A stretch of 61,107 nt of DNA from Minisyncoccia bacterium (GTDB lineage Bacteria > Patescibacteriota > Minisyncoccia > Phycocordibacterales > UBA918). Positions within the stretch are counted from its first letter, which is position 1. Every line of letters starts with the position of its first letter. The notes under the pieces were generated by a model. The model worked only from the letters and a program-made list of their open reading frames with translations, did not search any database and was not told the DNA's origin. This document shows, in pieces, positions 30 through 49,175 of the stretch. Position numbers and translations under genes: made by a program. The DNA is taken from positions 1 to 61,107 of the forward strand of contig JBLIOC010000002.1 in assembly GCA_047639355.1 (NCBI GenBank), in the 5' to 3' direction.

Positions 30-138
30 GGTCCACGAGGACTCGAAAAGCTTTTGAGTCAGATTGTGAGCGAAGCAAAACAATCTGTCCAAAAGGTATA
101 CTGGTCATGTAATGACCGAGATTCCTCGTGGACCCGCA
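30..138 (+). ncRNA. tRNA-minihelix-like structured repeat unit (copy A1)
   Basis: A 12-bp closing helix ggtccacgagga/tcctcgtggacc plus a cgca tail mimics an acceptor+T-stem. Inside are a GAAAAG junction, helix cttttg/caaaag capped by hairpin cagattgt-GAGCGAAGCAAA-acaatctg, a GTATACTG junction, and hairpin ggtca-TGTAA-tgacc. Confidence 0.6.
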
Positions 139-182
139 AAATTAGGAAGAATAAAACGGAGTTTTAGATGACATAATTTTCA

Positions 183-288
183 GGTCCACGTGGACTCGAA
201 AAGCTTTTGAGGTAGATTTGACTGAAAGGAGAATATATCCAAAAGGTATACTGGTCATGTAATGACCGAGATTCCTCATGGACCCACA
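183..288 (+). ncRNA. tRNA-minihelix-like structured repeat unit (copy A2)
   Basis: Same flanks as A1 (ggtccacgtgga/tcctcatggacc). The central hairpin is replaced by tagattt-GACTGAAAGGA-gaatata. The TATACTG junction and UGUAA hairpin are the same. Confidence 0.6.
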
Positions 289-332
289 AAATTCGGAAGA
301 ATAAAACGGAGTTTTTAATGACATAATTTTCA

Positions 333-439
333 GGTCCACGTGGACTCGAAAAGGTTGCCAGATATTTTGTGACGCAGGAGCAAAATATCTGGCAACCTAT
401 ACTGGTCATGTAATGACCGAGACTCCTCGTGGACCCGCA
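333..439 (+). ncRNA. tRNA-minihelix-like structured repeat unit (copy A3)
   Basis: Same closing helix as A1/A2. The central helix is ggttgccagatattttg-TGACGCAGGAG-caaaatatctggcaacc, followed by the CTATACTG junction, the ggtca-TGTAA-tgacc hairpin and the 3' end gactcctcgtggacccgca. Confidence 0.6.
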
Positions 440-596: not shown

Positions 597-1130
597 CTAC
601 CTCTTTATTTTCTTGAGTGTCCCTGGATTTGAAAGATCTGCAAAATACTTACGGGTGATGACTTTATACAAAGAAGACGCGTAGCGTTGCTTTGGAAACA
701 GTATTTTTTCAAACTTATTTTCCTCAATCAAGAAATCTACCAACATTCGATAGTCACCATCACCAGAGACCAGTACGACCTTATCAAAATCTTCTTGCTT
801 ATACACACGTTTCATTATCGAGAAGATGATATCTGAGTCAACATTTCCTTTTTTAGTTCCTTTCACAGCAGCATTATGCTTACGGAACACTAGAATGAAA
901 CCTGCAGATTGAACAGCTTCGTAAAGCGTCTGGTATTGCTGCTCATCTTGCACGTAACCATGATAATAATATGCTTTCTTCACGCCATATCGTTCTGCAA
1001 GAAATACACGGAACTTTTGTAAATCTACGTACCACTCAGGGTCACGCTTTGTTGTACCCAAATGAAGGTTCCGACCGTCTATATAACAAATGTTGTTTCC
1101 TGTACTTTTCATATTTATCCATGGCACCAA
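597..1130 (-). CDS. NYN-domain (LabA/DUF88-like) putative RNase
   Basis: The 177-aa ORF has the motifs ICYIDGRNL, GNVDSDI and VLVSGDGDY, typical of NYN/LabA-like PIN-fold proteins. An alternative start is Met7 at 1112. Confidence 0.7.
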   Translation of the reverse strand: MVPWINMKSTGNNICYIDGRNLHLGTTKRDPEWYVDLQKFRVFLAERYGVKKAYYYHGYVQDEQQYQTLYEAVQSAGFILVFRKHNAAVKGTKKGNVDSDIIFSIMKRVYKQEDFDKVVLVSGDGDYRMLVDFLIEENKFEKILFPKQRYASSLYKVITRKYFADLSNPGTLKKIKR

Positions 1131-1833: not shown

Positions 1834-1962
1834 GCGCCGAGAGAAAGCTCTGGGAGAGCTTTCGTCAGGATTTGAAAAGCTTTTGAGGTAGATTTGACTA
1901 AAAGGAGAATATATCCAAAAGGTATACTGGTTGTGTAACAACCAAAATTCCTGCTCGGCACA
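1834..1962 (+). ncRNA. tRNA-like structured repeat unit Y1 (mimics the tRNA-Tyr 3' end)
   Basis: Helices gcgccgag/ctcggcac, hairpin gaaagctc-tggga-gagctttc, and helix caggattt/aaattcctg. The core (cttttg..GACTAAAAGGA..caaaag, GTATACTG, ggttg-TGTAA-caacc) is nearly identical to A2. The unit is followed by the terminator hairpin aaacggc-tta-gccgttttttt. Confidence 0.6.
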
Positions 1963-1992
1963 CAAATTTAAAACGGCTTAGCCGTTTTTTTT

Positions 1993-2193
1993 GCGCCGAG
2001 AGAGTGACTCAATGTCACTCACGTCAGGATTTGAAGAGGTTGCCAGACTATTTTCGACCGAAGGGAGAAAATATCGACTGTCAATTGAGTGAGTGAAATA
2101 GAAATTTATTTATATTTCCGAACGAAAGCAGACAGAAAGCTTTGCTTACAACCTGTACCGAAACTGTAAGTTTCAAAATTCCTACTTGGCGCA
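1993..2193 (+). ncRNA. tRNA-like structured repeat unit Y2 (expanded copy)
   Basis: Contains gcgccgaga..., hairpin gagtgac-tcaat-gtcactc, and helix caggattt/aaaattcct. Helix ggttg.../...caacc encloses tattttc-GACCGAAGGGA-gaaaata plus extra hairpins. It continues with GTACCG, gaaac-TGTAA-gtttc, and the 3' end cctacttggcgcaca. Confidence 0.5.
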
Positions 2194-10179: not shown

Positions 10180-10265
10180 CACAGATTGGTATTTTAACTA
10201 AAGTTTATTCTTGTGTAATTACTTGTTTTGTCCAAAAAATTATTGTACACTCTCGCAACACGCAT

Positions 10266-10338
10266 GCGCCCTTAGCTCAGTTGGTAGAGCAGCTCCCTCT
10301 TAAGGAGACGGTCCAAGGTTCGAGCCCTTGAGGGCGCA
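10266..10338 (+). tRNA. tRNA-Lys (CTT)
   Basis: Acceptor gcgccct/agggcgc, D-arm gctcagttggtagagc, anticodon loop ctCTTaa, T-arm caagg-ttcgagc-ccttg. Confidence 0.9.
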
Positions 10339-10382
10339 CACAGGTAAAACAAAACACTATTCATTTGAATAGTGTTTTGTTT

Positions 10383-10487
10383 TAGAAACTGAACTTCTTC
10401 AGTTTCGTGCCTGTGTGCGAGACGGAAGCATATATTTTGCTCGTTCGTAGAGCAAAATACAGCTGAGTCGGGGTCGAGAACACTTAG
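10383..10487 (+). repeat. B-type structured repeat, copy B1 ('empty site' version)
   Basis: tagaaa + hairpin ctgaa-cttc-ttcag + tttcgtgcctgtgtgcgagacgga + hairpin (atattttgctc/gagcaaaatac) + gagtcgggg|tcgagaacacttag. It is collinear with 11214-11409 except for a roughly 90-nt block. Confidence 0.5.
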
Positions 10488-10508
10488 TAGAATTTGCACG
10501 TAGTGCGA

Positions 10509-10535
10509 AATTATACTTAGTGATTCGTGACCACA
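10509..10535 (+). repeat. 27-nt direct repeat (left copy) flanking unit K
   Basis: aattatacttagtgattcgtgaccaca, repeated at 10654-10680 with 1 mismatch. Confidence 0.8.
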
Positions 10536-10540
10536 TTATC

Positions 10541-10647
10541 GGTATACATAATCAAGAGAGCCCGATTGAGACAGATTCGACCAGCAGGAGAATCTGTCCA
10601 ATTGGGATACTGGTCTCGTAGAGACAGAGACCCCTTGAGCCCTCACA
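10541..10647 (+). ncRNA. Structured repeat unit K (3' end resembles the tRNA-Lys 3' end)
   Basis: Helix ccgattg/caattgg capped by acagattc-GACCAGCAGGA-gaatctgt, then the GATACTG junction and hairpin gtctc-GTA-gagac. The 3' end gagaccccttgagccctcaca compares with tRNA-Lys gagcccttgagggcgcaca. The 5' boundary is uncertain. Confidence 0.45.
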
Positions 10648-10653
10648 ACGAGT

Positions 10654-10680
10654 AATTATACTTAGTGATTCGTGGCCACA
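10654..10680 (+). repeat. 27-nt direct repeat (right copy)
   Basis: aattatacttagtgattcgtggccaca. Confidence 0.8.
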
Positions 10681-10745
10681 AAATACAACCCAACACCCTT
10701 CCTAGCCCTCTACAAAAAATTCTGCTATACTCTGCCGGCAACCCT

Positions 10746-10827
10746 GCGCGGGTGGCGAAATTGGTAGACGCGCTAGTTTTAGGCACTAGTGGAGCAATCC
10801 ATGGAGGTTCAAGTCCTCTCCCGCGCA
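10746..10827 (+). tRNA. tRNA-Leu (TAG), long variable arm
   Basis: Acceptor gcgcggg/cccgcgc, anticodon stem ctagt/actag with loop ttTAGgc, T-arm ggagg-ttcaagt-cctct. Confidence 0.9.
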
Positions 10828-10859
10828 CAAAGAAAACTGCCCTTGTGGCAGTTTTTGTT

Positions 10860-10990
10860 TGCTCGGGAAGTAAAGTCTGGGAGACTTTACGTGAGGACTT
10901 GAAAAGGTTGCCAGCAACTTTGTGAGCGAAGCGATACAAAGTGGCGACAACCTGTACTGAATCTGTAAGATTCAAGTCCTCTCCCGCGCA
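10860..10990 (+). ncRNA. tRNA-like structured repeat unit L1 (carries an exact 26-nt copy of the tRNA-Leu(TAG) 3' end)
   Basis: Hairpin taaagtct-ggga-gacttta, and helix gaggacttgaa/ttcaagtcctc. Helix ggttgcc../..ggcgacaacc is capped by aactttgt-GAGCGAAGCGAT-acaaagt, followed by CTGTACTG and gaatc-TGTAA-gattc. The 3' ttcaagtcctctcccgcgcacaaaga is identical to 10808-10833. Confidence 0.65.
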
Positions 10991-10995
10991 CAAAG

Positions 10996-11070
10996 AGCGA
11001 GGCACGCAATCAACCGAACGTCTCAAATACCAGTAAATGAGCCGTTCGGTGGATTGCGTGCCTCGCTTTT
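10996..11070. other. 25-bp near-perfect inverted repeat (long hairpin with a T-run)
   Basis: agcgaggcacgcaatcaaccgaacg - 22-nt loop - cgttcggtggattgcgtgcctcgct tttt. Confidence 0.7.
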
Positions 11071-11213
11071 CTCTTTTAGAGAAAACCGTGTATCACACAG
11101 GCGTGCGTAGCACGCTACTCGTTTAATTTTTGCTGGAAAAAAGTTCGCGCAAATGCTAGAATTACTACCAAAGGTAAACAAAAAACCAGTCACAAAGTGA
11201 CTGGTTTTTTGTT

Positions 11214-11409
11214 TAGAAAGCAAACCGCTTTGCTTTCGTACCTATGTGCGAGACGGAGACATGTTTTTCTCCCCTTTTCTTGGGAGAAAAACAGTCGAGC
11301 CGGGTGAAAAAGTCTGAGAGACTTTTGCAAGACCTTGCCAGTCATTTTGGAGTCTGCAAACAGAATGGCGACGAGGTGTACAGAATTCGTAGAATTCGAG
11401 AACACTTAG
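11214..11409 (+). ncRNA. B-type repeat, copy B2, carrying an A/L-type core ('filled site' version)
   Basis: The backbone matches B1. It has an extra block at about 11306-11395: aaaagtct-gaga-gactttt, ccttgccagtcattttg-GGAGTCTGCAAA-cagaatggcgacgagg, GTGTACAG, gaattc-GTA-gaattc. The block is homologous to the L1 core. Confidence 0.55.
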
Positions 11410-12446
11410 CTTAAGTGTACCCTCGTCTTGGCAAAAGGCTGTCGCTTACGAACGTAAAGATTGTAATAACGCGCTATCACCTTCTTTGAACGTTGAGGAA
11501 GCTTATCTACCTGGGCACAACCCCATGAACAGTAGCCATTTCGTTTCTCTATACAATCACCACAACCGATGAAAAGGGTGTGGCAAATTTGGTTCTTGCA
11601 GTGGTAATGAGTATCGCTTTTTTCTCTTTTGCACAAATGACAAGTAGAAATAATTTCATCGCTGATACGTTCACCTAACCGTTCGTCAAATACAAAGTTT
11701 TTGCCCTTGAACTTATTTGGTAACCCTTGCTGATCTACCTGACGAGCATAGTCAATAATACCGCCCCTTAGGTGTCGCACGTCTTTAAAACCATTATGCT
11801 TTAGCCATGCGCTTGCTTTCTCGCACCTAATCCCACCTGTACAGTACATAGCGACCTTTTTGTCTTTATGCTCTTTAAGAAGTTCCGGAGTTTTCTTAAG
11901 CTCCTCACGAAACGTCACCACGTTAGGAGTGACAGCACCTTCAAAATGACCAACCTCAGCTTCGTAATAATTTCGCATATCTACAACAACAGCGTCCGGA
12001 TCGTCAACATAGGCATTCATTTCCTCAGCTGTAAGATACTGGCCGGTTTCGGTTACATCAAACGAAGAATCTTCTAGCCCATCGGCTACGATTTTTTCCT
12101 TAACTTTTACCGTGAGTTTAAAAAATGACGGTAACTCCCCTTCTTCAACTGCAATTTTATACGGGATTCTTTGCAGTTCAGGCTGTATTTGTATCCAAGC
12201 GTCATATTGGTCCCAATATACCTTTGGGACGTTCATTTGGGCGTTAATGCCCTCGTGAGCTACATATATTCGGCCCAGACAATCAAGGTCAGACCATTTT
12301 GCCAAGATACGACTACGGAACTCTTCTGGGTCAGCGATTTTTACATAACGATAAAATGACAAAGTGACACGAGGACGCATATCTGCGGCGGCCGCCTGGC
12401 GCTTTTCGGCACGACTTCTAAGGTCACGAGTTTCGCTGGTTTTCAT
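11406..12446 (-). CDS. trhO: Rhodanese-domain tRNA uridine(34) hydroxylase-like protein (TrhO/YceA, UPF0176)
   Basis: 346 aa with the rhodanese active-site loop YCTGGIRCEKA and the Cys-rich C-terminal tail typical of this family. Confidence 0.8.
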   Translation of the reverse strand: MKTSETRDLRSRAEKRQAAAADMRPRVTLSFYRYVKIADPEEFRSRILAKWSDLDCLGRIYVAHEGINAQMNVPKVYWDQYDAWIQIQPELQRIPYKIAVEEGELPSFFKLTVKVKEKIVADGLEDSSFDVTETGQYLTAEEMNAYVDDPDAVVVDMRNYYEAEVGHFEGAVTPNVVTFREELKKTPELLKEHKDKKVAMYCTGGIRCEKASAWLKHNGFKDVRHLRGGIIDYARQVDQQGLPNKFKGKNFVFDERLGERISDEIISTCHLCKREKSDTHYHCKNQICHTLFIGCGDCIEKRNGYCSWGCAQVDKLPQRSKKVIARYYNLYVRKRQPFAKTRVHLS

Positions 12447-12547
12447 AGTTCAAAATAATACCTTAATGAGTGACCAGAACGCAACCACCTATGCTCTAAA
12501 CATTATAAAAACGTTACTAAACAACCCAACCTTCATACCCCTTGGCC

Positions 12548-12576
12548 TTGACTTTTCACTCAATTCATGCTATTAT
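12548..12576 (+). promoter_or_regulatory. Sigma70-like promoter for 12653 gene
   Basis: TTGACT - 17 nt - TATTAT. A strong SD (aaggagag) lies upstream of the ATG at 12653. Confidence 0.55.
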
Positions 12577-12652
12577 ACAAACAGAAAGGATAGATTCCCT
12601 ATCCAAAGTTATACGCGGCATTCCGTCGCATTGACAACTTAAGGAGAGAAAA

Positions 12653-14065
12653 ATGAATAAATTAACGAAAATCGGCCTGGCTTTAATAGCCATAGGCACA
12701 ATGGGCGCATCGGCGCTGATGATTGTGTATTGGAGCTTTATTTCTGACTACACGACTGCTATTGTAGCAGCTGTTACCCTAGTAATTATTTGCTACAACT
12801 TGACTGGAAGGCAAAGTGAGTTAAACAACCAACCTTCTACAGAAGATCCTGTGCGAGTTGGTAAGTACCTGAGTGTATTTCAGTGGAATCTCATAGTCCG
12901 GCCTGTAGTGAGCTTGACTGCAGGAACGATTGTAGCAGCTGTCTTTAAGTTCGCCGATTGGTACATAGAGACTAATGTTATGAACATTTGGATCTTTGCA
13001 GGAGTTGCTCTTGGCATGGCGGTGTTTTTTGCTCAAAGTGAAAACGAAGATGAAGTTGTACCAGAATCTTATGGAGCAATGCTGACATTCTGGGGTGTGC
13101 GCTTTAAGGCCTATCGTAAGGAAGGACGTTATCCCTGGACTGGCAAGCTTATTGGGTTTGGAAAGTCTCAAACTGTTCATTCAGAAGGAACTGACAAAGA
13201 TGGTTTTATAAAACTCCTCCCTTTTCCAATTTCAATCTGGAACCAAAAGGATCAGAAAGGGAAAGTGCAGTTGAAAAGTTCAGCACGCGATACTAGCGAG
13301 GTGACCACCACGCTTACACTTACCCTCCAACTGCTAGATCCTTACATTTGGATTGACTCTACTGACCCTGCGCTCGACTTAGCTGAACAAGCTAGGACAG
13401 CGTTCCGAGCTGCAATCGCCTTCTTTACTGGAGTTGATTGCACTTTAGTCAAAAGCGTATTTGCGAACTTGATGGTTGGACTTCCAATTCTTTCGGTATT
13501 TTTACCCAAAACAATTAATGGTTATCCGAAAGGTTCCATGCTAAGAGACAAAGGTGGAGTTTCCATGTATACGGTGATTAAGAAAGGATCTGACGAGACC
13601 TCTGTCAAAGAGAAATTTGCTAAACTAATAGACAGTGACGCTGACAGAATAATGCTAGCAGAATGTAATTCAACCCAGGATAGTAGCGTGGTTGATTTTT
13701 ACATTGCGAAAAGAACTGTTGAAACGGCTTTCGCTGATGTTCTCGATCGCCTTGGTGCCCATCTCGTCAAAGCGGCCGTAGGGAATATCAGCCTTTCAGA
13801 AGAGGTTACAAGAGAAGCTAATAAAGCGGCCAGTGAGACGTTCCAGCGCGAAAGTCAAGTTGCTAGTGCAAAGACTTTTGTCGAGGTAGGTAAAATAATG
13901 CAAGGAGTCAATGAGTTAAGTCTATCTGACTTTGACAAAGCTATTGCGGCAGCGCAAGACAATCCTAACGTAAAAGTTGTAGCAACCAGCGGCGGAGATG
14001 ATTCGCTCAAAGGAGCAGCAGCTACACTCGCAGCCCTAACAAATGGAGGAAATACAAATGAGTAA
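12653..14065 (+). CDS. Membrane protein with an SPFH/band-7 (flotillin/stomatin)-like domain
   Basis: 470 aa with about four N-terminal TM segments. The region VPESYGAMLTFWGVRF ... TLTLTLQLLDPYIW ... AEQARTAFRAAI ... ISLSEEVTREANKAASETFQRESQVASAK follows the SPFH pattern. This is recognition by eye only. Confidence 0.45.
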   Translation: MNKLTKIGLALIAIGTMGASALMIVYWSFISDYTTAIVAAVTLVIICYNLTGRQSELNNQPSTEDPVRVGKYLSVFQWNLIVRPVVSLTAGTIVAAVFKFADWYIETNVMNIWIFAGVALGMAVFFAQSENEDEVVPESYGAMLTFWGVRFKAYRKEGRYPWTGKLIGFGKSQTVHSEGTDKDGFIKLLPFPISIWNQKDQKGKVQLKSSARDTSEVTTTLTLTLQLLDPYIWIDSTDPALDLAEQARTAFRAAIAFFTGVDCTLVKSVFANLMVGLPILSVFLPKTINGYPKGSMLRDKGGVSMYTVIKKGSDETSVKEKFAKLIDSDADRIMLAECNSTQDSSVVDFYIAKRTVETAFADVLDRLGAHLVKAAVGNISLSEEVTREANKAASETFQRESQVASAKTFVEVGKIMQGVNELSLSDFDKAIAAAQDNPNVKVVATSGGDDSLKGAAATLAALTNGGNTNE

Positions 14066-14489
14066 GTGGATACGCCGTAACATATGGTTGATGCCATTTG
14101 CTGGAATCGCCATTGTAATACTACTAAAAGGGCTGGAGATTCCCTACACTTCTGTAGACACGATAACAAACTCTTACCTCCGGCTAATCACCGAGTACAC
14201 GGAAGAAGAGTACGGAACAGGAAGTACTGTATGGCTTTGGGCGGTAATCCCGGTTATTGTACTAGTGCTTTGGAAATTATTTATCTCCAAATCATCAAGT
14301 TCAGGAGGCGGGTTTGCGGCTGGAATGGTGAAGATTTTCGACTCAATTCTGGGAACAATTGTAGCCTTAGTAATTGGAGCAGGAGGTCTTGCTATACTTA
14401 GTGTAGTACTATTAATCATTTTGGCTATTCTTGATTACAATACGGATGTCATGGACAAACTATTAGTCTTTTGGCAGTCTATTTTCTAG
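14043..14489 (+). CDS. Small multi-TM membrane protein overlapping the SPFH-like gene (possible NfeD-like partner)
   Basis: 148 aa with about four hydrophobic helices. It has a 23-nt overlap with the upstream gene and is followed by a terminator hairpin at about 14520-14560. Confidence 0.4.
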   Translation: MEEIQMSKWIRRNIWLMPFAGIAIVILLKGLEIPYTSVDTITNSYLRLITEYTEEEYGTGSTVWLWAVIPVIVLVLWKLFISKSSSSGGGFAAGMVKIFDSILGTIVALVIGAGGLAILSVVLLIILAILDYNTDVMDKLLVFWQSIF

Positions 14490-14577
14490 TCAGACTCTCT
14501 CCTTTTGTTCTTTAACCAAATGACTCCCCAAGCGTACACGCTTGGAGGAGTCTTTTTTTATAAAAGTATTAATTTAC

Positions 14578-14925
14578 TTAGTCAGGAACATCTAAACCAA
14601 ATGTACCAGCGACAATTGAAAGGATTGAGAAAGCAGAAAGCATTATTACTAGGCCAATAATGCCATAGGTTATGTGGGACACTCCTGTTCGTCTTGCTTC
14701 TTCGTTAGCTGCATTCATAAAATACTCGGCGCAACCCCAGATAAACATCAAAAGGGCTACACCCGACAAAAGCGCGATAGTAGGGAACAAAATAATAGTA
14801 TTGAGCTTATCGACAAAGCTTTTAGCCACAGCGACATGACCGTCAGCCTCTGCTACTCCTGACAGAGTGACGAATGCCCCAACCTGAAAAAGTCCAGCCG
14901 TTAATAAATTTTTGAGTTTTTTCAT
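14578..14925 (-). CDS. VirB2/TrbC-like pilin-type small membrane protein
   Basis: 115 aa with a signal peptide and two TM helices flanking the charged loop NAANEEARRTG. Confidence 0.5.
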   Translation of the reverse strand: MKKLKNLLTAGLFQVGAFVTLSGVAEADGHVAVAKSFVDKLNTIILFPTIALLSGVALLMFIWGCAEYFMNAANEEARRTGVSHITYGIIGLVIMLSAFSILSIVAGTFGLDVPD

Positions 14926-15061
14926 ATTAAATCTTAGCGCTAGTGGTATTGCTCAGATTTTACCATAAACATAACTGAAGAATTTGATTATGCGACTTTT
15001 TACCAACAAAAAAAGCCGCAGCCGCGGCTTTTTTGATAAACTTTTGATAAACTAATGTTTG

Positions 15062-15457
15062 TTATGATGGGGTGGTGATGGTAATTCCACGAGGAATACT
15101 AACTGTATCTTCGTCAAGCCCTGTACTAGAGGTCAATAGGTTAACAATTCCCCAGAATACGATAATGAGTACGAAACCGAGAGTTGCGTAAATCATCAAA
15201 CTCTTTCCTTGTTCTTTGGCTTCTTCGTTAGCTCCACCAGCAATGAAGAACCTGAACATTCCCCAGACAAATACCAAGAAACCAATACCAATGATGAACG
15301 GAATGAGGACATCGTTAGCAAAAATGAGGATGTTCGTGAGAAGTGTTCCAAACGGATTTTCAGAACCTACGGGAAGTACGCTGTGAGTAGAGGCTGAAGC
15401 AAGCATAGGCAAAGCCATCATGCTACCTGCTCCTAATATATACCTAATCTTTTTCAT
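15062..15457 (-). CDS. VirB2/TrbC-like pilin-type small membrane protein (tandem paralogue 1)
   Basis: Start MKKIRYILGAG. The core LIPFIIGIGFLVFVWGMFRFFIAGGANEEAKEQGKSLMIYATLGFVLIIVFWGIVNLL is identical to the neighbouring gene. Confidence 0.55.
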   Translation of the reverse strand: MKKIRYILGAGSMMALPMLASASTHSVLPVGSENPFGTLLTNILIFANDVLIPFIIGIGFLVFVWGMFRFFIAGGANEEAKEQGKSLMIYATLGFVLIIVFWGIVNLLTSSTGLDEDTVSIPRGITITTPS

Positions 15458-36280: not shown

Positions 36281-36410
36281 TGCTCCGAGCAGAAAGTGGA
36301 GCTTTCGGGCAGGGTTCGAAGAGATGGAGTTTATCGCACGAGCGTTAGTGAAGTACGATACGACATCTTTACCGTTCCTGTATGGAAAGAAATTCCTGCC
36401 GCCGGAGCAA
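36281..36410 (+). ncRNA. tRNA-like structured repeat unit (divergent copy)
   Basis: Perfect 7-bp acceptor-like helix tgctccg/cggagca, hairpin gaaag-tggag-ctttc, T-stem-like ggcagg/cctgcc enclosing gttcgaag + helix agatg/catct + ttcc-TGTAT-ggaa. Confidence 0.5.
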
Positions 36411-49038: not shown

Positions 49039-49175
49039 CGAGAGGAAGCGGATAAAGGTGTATAGATACCTTTAGTCAGGACTCGAAAAGCTTTTGAGGT
49101 AGTTTCGACCACAGTGAGAATAAATCCAAAAGGTATACTGCTTGTGTAACAAGAGAAATTCCTGCCGCCGGAACA
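49039..49175 (+). ncRNA. tRNA-like structured repeat unit (copy at 49 kb)
   Basis: Hairpin aaaggt-gtatagat-accttt, and helix caggactc/gaaattcctg. The core cttttgag..GACCACAGTGA..tccaaaag, GTATACTG, cttg-TGTAA-caag is nearly identical to Y1/A2. The 3' end cctgccgccggaaca matches 36395-36409. Confidence 0.55.

Follow-up and report, generated by a model that had tools for sequence, protein, structure and literature searches.

A multi-copy, tRNA-linked candidate RNA module and the filled and empty forms of its host element in a Patescibacteria genome

The window considered here is a stretch of 61,107 nucleotides from a Patescibacteria genome (contig JBLIOC010000002.1 of assembly GCA_047639355.1), which contains two copies of a repeat called B. 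One of them, B2, carries an extra block of 90 nt that is lacking in the other, B1. Judged from its sequence, this block represents a structured-RNA module that recurs in the window, where a covariance model (CM) detected 10 copies in all, each on the + strand. B2 is a B element with the module in its central junction (B-long) and B1 is a B element without it (B-short). The larger result is the module family itself, which extends beyond the B1/B2 pair; it matches neither Rfam nor the literature found and is undescribed to date. The best explanation, to which we give an even chance, is that of a tRNA-linked structured RNA module that is gained and lost by DNA recombination.

Architecture and covariation of the module

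The module is built from a hairpin (hp1) and a three-way junction of the helices P1, P2, and P3. The junction strand between P1 and P2 reads GAAAA(G), or GCAAGA in the B-long subtype, URUACU connects P2 to P3, and the 3' strand of P1 follows P3 with 0 nt in between. P2 is a long and variable hairpin, and P3 consists of 6 bp with a GUA triloop. Because the Y-R pair flanking the GUA covaries (U-A, C-G, U.G), P3 is read as a closed triloop; an anticodon loop was ruled out for this GUA. The unpaired GAA and UACU and the GUA loop are near-invariant, and the G-C pair at the base of P3 never covaries. The tip of P2 is often GAGC-NNN-GCGAA (e.g., window 10925-10937), and the same tip recurs in the tail of B (e.g., in L005 and L031; L with a three-digit number denotes a comparison locus, while L1 and M3 are module copies of the window). 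From its sequence, this tip could form tandem G.A pairs (k-turn-like or loop-E-like) and is a possible protein-binding site in both element types.

The fold is carried by covariation. In the seed alignment (A1), 88.8% of the cells were paired compared with 71.4% in shuffles, and double changes occurred at 18/24 pairs. The covariation score was 0.465 versus 0.174 (0/500 shuffles reached it), and controls with slid partners remained at or below 0.135. The second alignment (A2) comprises 103 distinct metagenome sequences that stood outside the model building but were aligned to the model; here, 91.7% of the cells were paired (70.5% when shuffled), double changes were found at 23/24 pairs, and the score was 0.501 versus 0.141.

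Outside the window, 48 module copies were found in the neighborhoods of trhO genes of related Patescibacteria genomes, nearly all of them in closer relatives, and more distant trhO loci yielded merely a few weak matches. Metagenomes added at least 115 further copies in at least 80 loci (a pattern scan giving at least 120 loci, followed by the CM). No genuine copy was found on viral contigs, where the only pattern match, on a phage contig, was attributed to chance as it lies within a coding sequence and lacks the P3 hairpin.

A known RNA family was ruled out as the identity of either the module or B. When the whole window was searched against Rfam 15 with cmscan at the gathering score, and positions 10200-11500 at E <= 10, only tRNAs and low-scoring hairpin look-alikes were obtained. 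Six true tRNAs, and no others, were called in the window (ARAGORN and Rfam RF00005), and B1, B2, L1, and M3 gave no tRNA match even at E <= 10, so they do not belong to the tRNA family. Literature searches returned no described equivalent of the module.

The near-invariant unpaired GAA and UACU, the GUA loop, the non-covarying G-C at the base of P3, and the 0 nt between P3 and P1 might also be expected of an RNA-level intervening sequence or ribozyme, which would be excised or cleave itself at the boundary of P3 and P1 (the equivalents of tRNA positions 56/57), so that B-long would mature to a B-short-like RNA and tandem arrays would yield unit-length RNAs. The module always lies in a loop or junction whose closing helix comes from the host, it forms head-to-tail arrays, and group-I-like introns are present in tRNA genes of these organisms. 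We nevertheless regard such an activity as very unlikely: a search of Rfam at E <= 10 matched none of its ribozyme or intron models (including those of the self-cleaving hammerhead, twister, pistol, hatchet, and HDV-like families), and 90 nt is far below the size of group I and II introns. The junction strands fit neither the order nor the sequence of the hammerhead; a hammerhead reading of CUGA/GAAA was dismissed on the wrong strand order and on GAAAAG/URUACU/0 nt, which stand against the hammerhead's CUGANGA/GAA/H.

B1 and B2 as empty and filled forms of one element

A preliminary description of the window had proposed that B1 and B2 are collinear and that the extra block of B2 sits at one discrete position. 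Both statements are borne out by a global alignment of B1 (10336-10487) with B2 (11166-11409), which yielded 110 identities over 150 aligned columns (73%) and, besides four gaps of 1-3 nt, a single gap of 90 nt (B2 11305-11394). The left flanks align with a score of 32, compared with -23 +/- 5 in 500 shuffles. Moreover, the shared 24-nt core TTTCGTRCCTRTGTGCGAGACGGA occurs in the window only at 10403 and 11234 (0 expected by chance), and the 14-nt right flank TCGAGAACACTTAG only at 10474 and 11396. In B1, GAGTCGGGG (10465-10473) directly abuts TCGAGAACAC (starting at 10474) with zero bases in between, in line with the description of B1 as free of an insert, and the hairpin pairs of B1 and B2 indeed differ in sequence and are predicted to fold alike. 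The edges of the block are uncertain by 1-2 nt because there is a T on both sides.

The asserted homology of the block to the core of L1 likewise holds. The pattern TTGCCAG...TGGCGAC is found in the window at 10908 and 11335 only (0.02 expected), and a CM of 25 other copies, with B2 left out, matches 11318-11407 with 51.6 bits (E 3e-11). An independent assembly (a Logan contig of SRR28416755 covering window positions 10962-15143) is 100% identical over B2, and the filled state is thus not an assembly artefact. Strain polymorphism at the B2 site was looked for in the only contigs that encode an identical trhO-like protein, all of which are 100% identical to the window. The exact B-core pattern gave 0 matches in GTDB genomes and viral contigs, the species being apparently absent from the GTDB representatives.

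According to its modeled fold, B is a second structured RNA of ~150 nt and itself a three-way junction. The B-short consensus, derived from 12 sequences, shows compensatory changes at 31/46 pairs. hp1 lies outside the junction, the closing helix is UGUG/CACA, the hp2 arm stands on a CGG/YCG base, and the tail is a long helix (UCGAGAACACUUAG...CUUAGUGAUUCGUGA). The 3' end of B is CCACA, or GACA where the tRNA ends in GGACA, and thereby resembles a tRNA end. In B1, hp1 (10385-10406) is followed by the anti-trailer CCTGTGTGC (10410-10418), by GAGACGGA, and by the hp2 arm up to GAGTCGGGG; its tail helix is TCGAGAACACTTAG...CTTAGTGATTCGTGA and its 3' end CCACA. The conserved CCTGTGTGC is no fixed motif but the complement of the last bases and trailer of the preceding tRNA-Lys (GCACACAGG, 10336-10344), with which it pairs in a duplex of -21.8 kcal/mol; the tRNA-Lys trailer and B1 together have a fold z of -11.4. 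In other genomes, the anti-trailer tracks whichever unit precedes it, including tRNA-Lys variants, tRNA-Leu(taa), an L-type module, or another B. B can also form arrays, as in L100 (4098-4727), where five identical 136-nt units stand in tandem; there, the anti-trailer of each unit pairs with the 3' end of the previous one.

B2 has the same order of parts, namely hp1, the anti-trailer TACCTATGTGC, GAGACGGA, hp2, and GAGCCGGGT (11297-11305), after which comes the module and then TCGAGAACACTTAG (11396-11409), which opens a short tail hairpin that extends into the trhO-like open reading frame (ORF). The module itself consists of an hp1 equivalent (11308-11326), the junction GCAAGA (11327-11332), P2 (11333-11376), TGTACA (11377-11382), and P3 (GAATTC-GTA-GAATTC, 11383-11397), whose final two bases are common to the flank of B. 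A further complementarity, with one bulge, was observed between CTTTTGCAAGAC of the block (11321-11332) and GTCTTGGCAAAAG in the last codons of the trhO-like gene (11424-11436), which may be due to chance. A helix of these two strands was rejected as P1 of B2, as it is not kept in L032 or L044 and competes with hp1.

The view of B2 as a fresh landing of the module did not hold up. B-long forms occur in L132/L150 (with the GCAAGA junction, GAATTCGTAGAATTC as P3, and a complete B tail, beside B-short copies) and, more diverged, behind tRNA-Lys in L032 and L044, and the module always occupies the same junction. The block of B2 is also only 55-68% identical to the other nine copies of the window. 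B-long and B-short appear from these comparisons to be conserved paralogous architectures of the clade, and we favor an old gain or loss of a domain between two conserved forms of B over a recent transposition. Insertion and deletion are indistinguishable at B2/B1, and any empty state could equally be a deletion. A supposed third state of the B site in L013/L014, with an insert of 37 nt, was ruled out because the stretch is the tail hairpin of B.

Fusion of the module to tRNA 3' ends

The usual position of the module is behind a tRNA gene and in the same orientation. From the 3' strand of P1 onward, its sequence is a copy of the 3' end of the neighboring tRNA, reaching from T-loop position ~57 to the discriminator plus several trailer bases. 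Exact copies of at least 12 nt from the 3' end of a co-oriented upstream tRNA were found in 68/163 module copies (median gap of 64.5 nt; 20 isoacceptors); among the remaining copies inspected, many have tails that resemble tRNA 3' ends but lie on cut contigs or deviate at one or two positions. At a typical right junction, P3 ends in ..UUC, which is followed by RAnYCC and the acceptor 3' strand of the neighbor tRNA. Accordingly placed behind tRNA-Leu(TAG), L1 forms with it a 29-nt direct repeat (10805-10833 and 10968-10996, 97% identity), the last 26 nt of which are exact (TTCAAGTCCTCTCCCGCGCACAAAGA).

The 5' strand of P1 complements the copied tRNA end and changes with it (GGACUU/AAGUCC, GGGAUU/AAUUCC, GGGGCUC/GAGCCC, and GGGAUC/GAAUCCC). 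Full-length copies have an extra strand 24-27 nt further upstream that pairs with the acceptor 3' strand. Between this strand and P1 lies hp1 (loop YGGGRG), which starts two nt past the acceptor-like strand, at the place where a D-arm would be. Acceptor-5'-like strands of at least 7 bp were found in 63/99 copies, mostly 24-27 nt upstream, compared with 37/99 shuffled controls. L1 shows the complete order, with the acceptor-5'-like strand GCTCGGGA, hp1 AAAGTCTGGGAGACTTT, P1 GAGGACTT/AAGTCCTC, GAAAAG, P2, TGTACT, and P3 (GAATCT-GTA-AGATTC). As its 5' strands complement the fused tRNA-end copy, the transcript is predicted to fold as a stack resembling acceptor stem and T-stem, in which the three-way junction would take the place of the zipped-up T-loop. 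The combination that marks a tRNA mimic, an acceptor-type stem coaxial with a covarying T-stem-type helix, is present here, for P1 covaries with tRNA identity.

The landing site of the module had been described as a T-loop-like context. This applies to the right junction, which is derived from a T-loop, but not to the left flank, which is acceptor-5'-like or a junction strand without any T-stem. The earlier interpretation is supported in part, in that the module is a discrete, interchangeable unit joined to T-loop-derived sequence. As a separate observation, a GCAAGA-type module in L111 (4938-5080) is fused to a duplicated 5' part of a tRNA (acceptor 5' strand and D-arm) and sits just 5' of the parent tRNA gene, which contains an intron.

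Duplicated tRNA 3' ends are a classic mark of integrase-mediated insertion, and the repeat at L1 might be taken as such. It is hence conceivable that the copies are nothing specific, i.e., terminators, scars of attachment (att) sites at tRNA genes, or, in the case of B2, the 3' untranslated region of the trhO-like gene on the minus strand. B2 lies between the stop codon of that gene and a bidirectional terminator, and minus-strand folds are equally stable. The covariation largely refutes this reading, which we find hardly credible: scars or terminators would not be expected to retain a three-way junction while compensatory changes accumulate by the hundreds in over 100 distinct sequences, and they leave the invariant junction bases and the arms that track 20 different tRNAs unaccounted for. 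In addition, most copies lie away from the trhO-like gene, and no integrase was found in the ORFs flanking the arrays.

Genomic setting

The nearest relatives of the trhO-like gene of the window belong to metagenome-assembled genomes labeled Nomurabacteria, Paceibacteria, Kaiserbacteria, and "Saccharibacteria". B1 and B2 are located in a noncoding stretch of 1.6 kb that extends from rbfA to the convergent trhO-like gene and contains, in this order, tRNA-Cys, tRNA-Leu(taa), a 66-aa ORF, tRNA-Lys, B1, M3, tRNA-Leu(tag), L1, and B2. M3 is flanked on both sides by 27-nt direct repeats of AATTATACTTAGTGATTCGTGRCCACA, the end of the B tail (10509-10535 and 10654-10680). In L008, two complete copies of B are arranged in this way, and the second repeat is therefore interpreted as the remnant of a lost B. 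The coordinates of all features are collected in Table 1.

Table 1. Features of the window and of comparison loci (locus name given with the position where it is not the window)
Feature	Position	Strand	Basis
Module array, three tandem copies (35-127, 188-277, 338-428)	35..428	+	CM, sequence
Two module copies behind tRNA-Tyr (1864-1955, 2023-2184)	1864..2184	+	CM, sequence
tRNA-Lys(CTT)	10266..10339	+	ARAGORN, Rfam
Perfect 19-bp terminator-like hairpin, inside the trailer/anti-trailer helix	10345..10384	+	Inverted-repeat list, fold
B1, B-short (empty) form	10383..10535	+	Fold z = -11.4; B-short consensus, 31/46 pairs compensated
Empty junction in B1 (GGGG followed by TCGAG), within the central three-way junction of B	10473..10474	+	Alignment, consensus fold
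Module copy M3, ending in a tRNA-Lys-like 3' end (CCCTTGAGCCCTCACA)	10536..10653	+	CM 10554-10636, 44.9 bits
tRNA-Leu(TAG), source of the 3'-end sequence copied in L1	10746..10828	+	ARAGORN, Rfam
L1, full-length module	10860..10990	+	CM 94.6 bits (10891-10983); fold z = -5.9; direct repeat
Terminator-like hairpin 5' of B2, positional homologue of 10345-10384	11175..11215	+	Inverted-repeat list, alignment
B2, B-long (filled) form	11214..11409	+	Sequence, fold, alignment
Module within B2	11306..11395	+	CM 51.6 bits; alignment gap 11305-11394
Module copy in B2 as matched by the CM	11318..11407	+	CM 51.6 bits
Convergent trhO-like gene (UPF0176_N/Rhodanese/Rhodanese_C); stop codon within the last bases of B2	11406..12446	-	Domain search
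Diverged module copy, no intact tRNA gene near	36308..36400	+	CM 24.2 bits; sequence
Module copy, no intact tRNA gene near; 3' end GAAATTCCTGCCGCCGGAACA	49075..49166	+	CM 58.8 bits; sequence
Free-standing LAGLIDADG_3 gene	L100 6364-7035	-	
Free-standing LAGLIDADG_3 gene	L130 1950-2603	+	
Free-standing LAGLIDADG_3 gene	L157 1662-2327	+	
ORF of a second recurrent, HTH-bearing family near modules	L136 2099-2842	+	

The three copies at the left end of the window have identical arms and P3 and three different P2 hairpins, and their 3' ends copy a tRNA to the left of the window. A gene for an NYN-domain protein (predicted RNase; 597-1130, minus strand) directly adjoins this array. The second copy behind tRNA-Tyr has ~70 extra nt in P2, a nested expansion.

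Gain, loss, and exchange of the module

The preliminary description had suggested a search for more filled and empty pairs, and these were found in L006 versus L012, L136, and L150. L006 carries three identical 142-nt units behind tRNA-Leu(taa), of which its close relative L012 has none; the flanks are 96-99% identical, and a 25-nt repeat of the tRNA end borders the stretch in which they differ. In L136, two small elements stand in tandem behind tRNA-Gly, with 24 nt in common at the left side and 25 nt at the right. The empty one is a plain hairpin in which GAAATGCTGG runs directly into GAGCATTTC, and the other holds hp1-GCAAGA-P2-UAUACC-P3 in that loop. Since such pairs recur, 'insertable module' is a fair description.

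Units are also multiplied and exchanged. Besides the arrays mentioned above, L008 contains four tandem identical units of 182 nt. In L016, the copies behind the Leu and Lys tRNAs share a run of 68 identical nt in the core and have different arms. The array copy 188-277 and the tRNA-Tyr copy 1864-1955 of the window have P2 in common, with a resemblance to the copy at 49075-49166, and P2 thus seems, by sequence, to behave as an exchangeable cassette. L005b is a chimera whose arms suit tRNA-Leu(tag) and whose 3' end is from tRNA-Leu(taa). The surrounding tRNA cluster near trhO-like genes is variable as well: among relatives (L003-L043), tRNA-Cys, Leu(taa), Lys, and Leu(tag) vary in their order and orientation through inversions, the breakpoints of which plausibly fall at module and tRNA-end repeats.

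Mobility genes were sought in the 61-kb window and in the short loci. Pfam scans of the ORFs flanking the arrays revealed no transposase or integrase, and neither did a clustering of 298 ORFs located within 1.5 kb of metagenome copies. The B2 and L136 junctions, each ambiguous by at most 1-2 nt, have neither terminal inverted repeats nor target duplications, as transposons or miniature inverted-repeat transposable elements (MITEs) would. Of the two marks of an integrative element, direct repeats are found (the 29-nt repeat of L1 and the 25-nt repeat around the 3 x 142 nt of L006, absent in L012), although no integrase domain accompanies them in the ORFs flanking the arrays; the long direct repeats around modules are copies of tRNA 3' ends.

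The only recurrent neighbor ORFs, among the matches listed, are LAGLIDADG and HTH genes, which occur in ~16 of at least 120 metagenome loci and not in the window. The LAGLIDADG genes are placed between tRNA-Met with its module and tRNA-Asp with its module, rather than inside modules. These ORFs were rejected as a linked mobility gene of the module, as only a minority of loci have them, they lie between tRNA genes, and the tRNA introns present there account for them better. Inserts of ~240-330 nt with group-I-like motifs (GATATAGTCC) were observed in the anticodon loops of tRNA-Asp(GUC) in L157 (2336-2640) and of a tRNA with a GUA anticodon in L111 (5126-5545), both of which are missed by ARAGORN; the L130 orthologue (2693-2768) of the L157 tRNA-Asp is intron-free.

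Filled and empty pairs in three unrelated hosts (tRNA-Leu(taa) in L006/L012, the hairpin in L136, and B-long/B-short) also invite the idea that the module is a nonautonomous mobile element, which would enter T-loop-like or hairpin-loop sites through an enzyme acting in trans or an RNA-guided step. The 5' strands of P3 and P1 would then be guides that complement the DNA to the right of the insertion, with B2 as the filled and B1 as the empty site. Several observations fit: the left edge is similar across hosts (GG followed by (G)TGAAAAAGTYT), a 68-nt identical core occurs in two tRNA contexts of one genome (L016), a reduced genome has ten copies within 61 kb, relatives show rearrangements of the tRNA cluster, and the arms always complement the right flank, which recombination explains poorly. 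Against this stand the missing inverted repeats and target-site duplications at B2 and L136, the lack of a transposase or integrase near the arrays (LAGLIDADG genes being confined to the few loci given above), the age of the B2 block with B-long inherited across genomes, the fact that every empty state may be a deletion, and the lack of copies on viral contigs. A mobile element of this kind is in our estimate rather unlikely. Of the original proposal of a mobile or excisable module, the discrete unit and its presence in many host contexts hold; mobility in the transposon sense is hypothetical.

A bolder version, which we judge distinctly unlikely, holds that the module is a self-propagating RNA element that chooses its landing site by base pairing of the P3 and P1 5' strands with the sequence immediately right of the junction. 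It would insert or be copied there, typically at the T-loop, T-stem, or acceptor 3' strand of tRNA genes, either through catalysis by its own junction or with the help of a host enzyme, and would thereby generate tRNA-mimicking small RNAs and arrays across Patescibacteria genomes.

Proposed expression and spread

If the module is instead a tRNA-linked structured RNA gained and lost by DNA recombination, transcription would run from the tRNA promoters into the elements, and these would function as RNA on the tRNA-sense strand; read-through is suggested by the terminator-like hairpin in front of each element and the lack of an evident promoter belonging to it. With their tRNA-like ends, they may act as substrates or mimics toward RNase P, RNase Z, and the CCA-adding enzyme, and they would be matured like tRNAs. 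At the DNA level, they may spread and be lost by unequal crossing-over and deletion between the 20-29-nt repeats of tRNA ends, and further routes could be gene conversion of the P2/P3 core and microhomology at GTTCRA, all of which would work without a dedicated transposase. A site resembling a promoter, with an extended -10 (TGCTAGAAT), was noticed at 11134-11162 of the window, just 5' of the hairpin that precedes B2; B2 could thus have its own promoter, unlike most copies.

Several points weigh against this explanation. Each module is preceded by a terminator-like hairpin with a U-tract and lacks a clear promoter, which leaves its transcription hypothetical. The minus-strand folds of L1 and B1 are equally or more stable, and the strand is resolved only modestly: G.U outnumbers A.C by 87 to 48 overall and by 15 to 0 in P2, in an alignment that was fitted to the + strand, and a structure of single-stranded DNA would yield the same covariation. 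Recombination alone hardly explains how 5' strands came to complement the T-loop half of 20 tRNAs. Nor does it account for the match of the P3 5' strand to host sequence right of the junction in the unrelated hosts L136 and B2, a match that resembles target recognition.

Comparison with known systems

By analogy with known systems, whose features are given here as general knowledge, the module would act most like a tRNA mimic, and its distribution resembles that of intervening sequences (IVSs) in rRNA or of att-flanked remnants at tRNA genes. It has in common with tRNA-like domains (those of tmRNA, YrlA/Y-RNA-like RNAs, and mascRNA) an acceptor-type stem joined directly to a T-stem-like helix, a hairpin two nt past the acceptor 5' strand at the place of the D-arm, and a 3' discriminator without an encoded CCA. 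These likenesses make handling by RNase P, RNase Z, and the CCA-adding enzyme plausible. Unlike in such domains, the 3' half of the module is a literal, locus-specific copy of the neighbor tRNA (20 isoacceptors), its T-loop is base-paired and gives way to a three-way junction, and it is multi-copy, occurs in tandem, and has no Rfam match.

The IVSs of bacterial 23S rRNA are likewise extra stem-loop domains of ~100 nt that are present in some gene copies only, at the tip or junction of a helix of the host RNA, with a sporadic distribution and unknown mobility machinery. However, they are simple extended helices that are removed by RNase III, whereas the module is a three-way junction that is conserved and whose unpaired bases are invariant, and it has tRNA-linked small RNAs as its hosts. 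Att-flanked elements and their remnants share the sequence of an intact tRNA, inserted DNA, and a tRNA 3'-end repeat that starts in the T-loop, as well as tandem accretion and exact presence/absence between close relatives (as in L006/L012). The unit of 136-182 nt is, in contrast, noncoding and without an integrase found, and it contains strands that complement the repeat and a covarying fold, neither of which att sites need.

Repetitive extragenic palindromic (REP) sequences, REPINs, and MITEs are, like the module, short, noncoding, hairpin-forming repeats that occur between genes in many copies and drift while preserving their structure; REPINs are mobilized in trans. The module differs from them by its lack of terminal inverted repeats, its fixed orientation to tRNA genes, its fusion to a tRNA 3' end, and a three-way junction in place of a simple palindrome, and the DNA examined showed no RAYT-type gene. 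Transposing archaeal tRNA introns and split tRNAs also involve short structured inserts in many tRNAs per genome, including the T-arm region. Here, on the other hand, the functional tRNA genes are intact and the module sits in an additional, partial copy and shows no evident bulge-helix-bulge motif; we know of no splicing endonuclease in this bacterial lineage. The tandem interspersed guide RNA (TIGR) arrays, which are also present in Patescibacteria, have much shorter units and, to our knowledge, contain no tRNA ends.

Implications

A small Patescibacteria genome devotes more than 1 kb of the window to ten module copies, and further sequence to B. The natural filled and empty pairs and the arrays provide ready constructs for tests of cleavage, processing, and insertion. 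If the module is mobile, it would represent a new route by which a tiny element targets tRNA genes and yet leaves them intact. Should it act as a functional tRNA mimic, it would point to an unknown biology of tRNA ends, which may concern processing, decoys, or regulation, in a major uncultured lineage.

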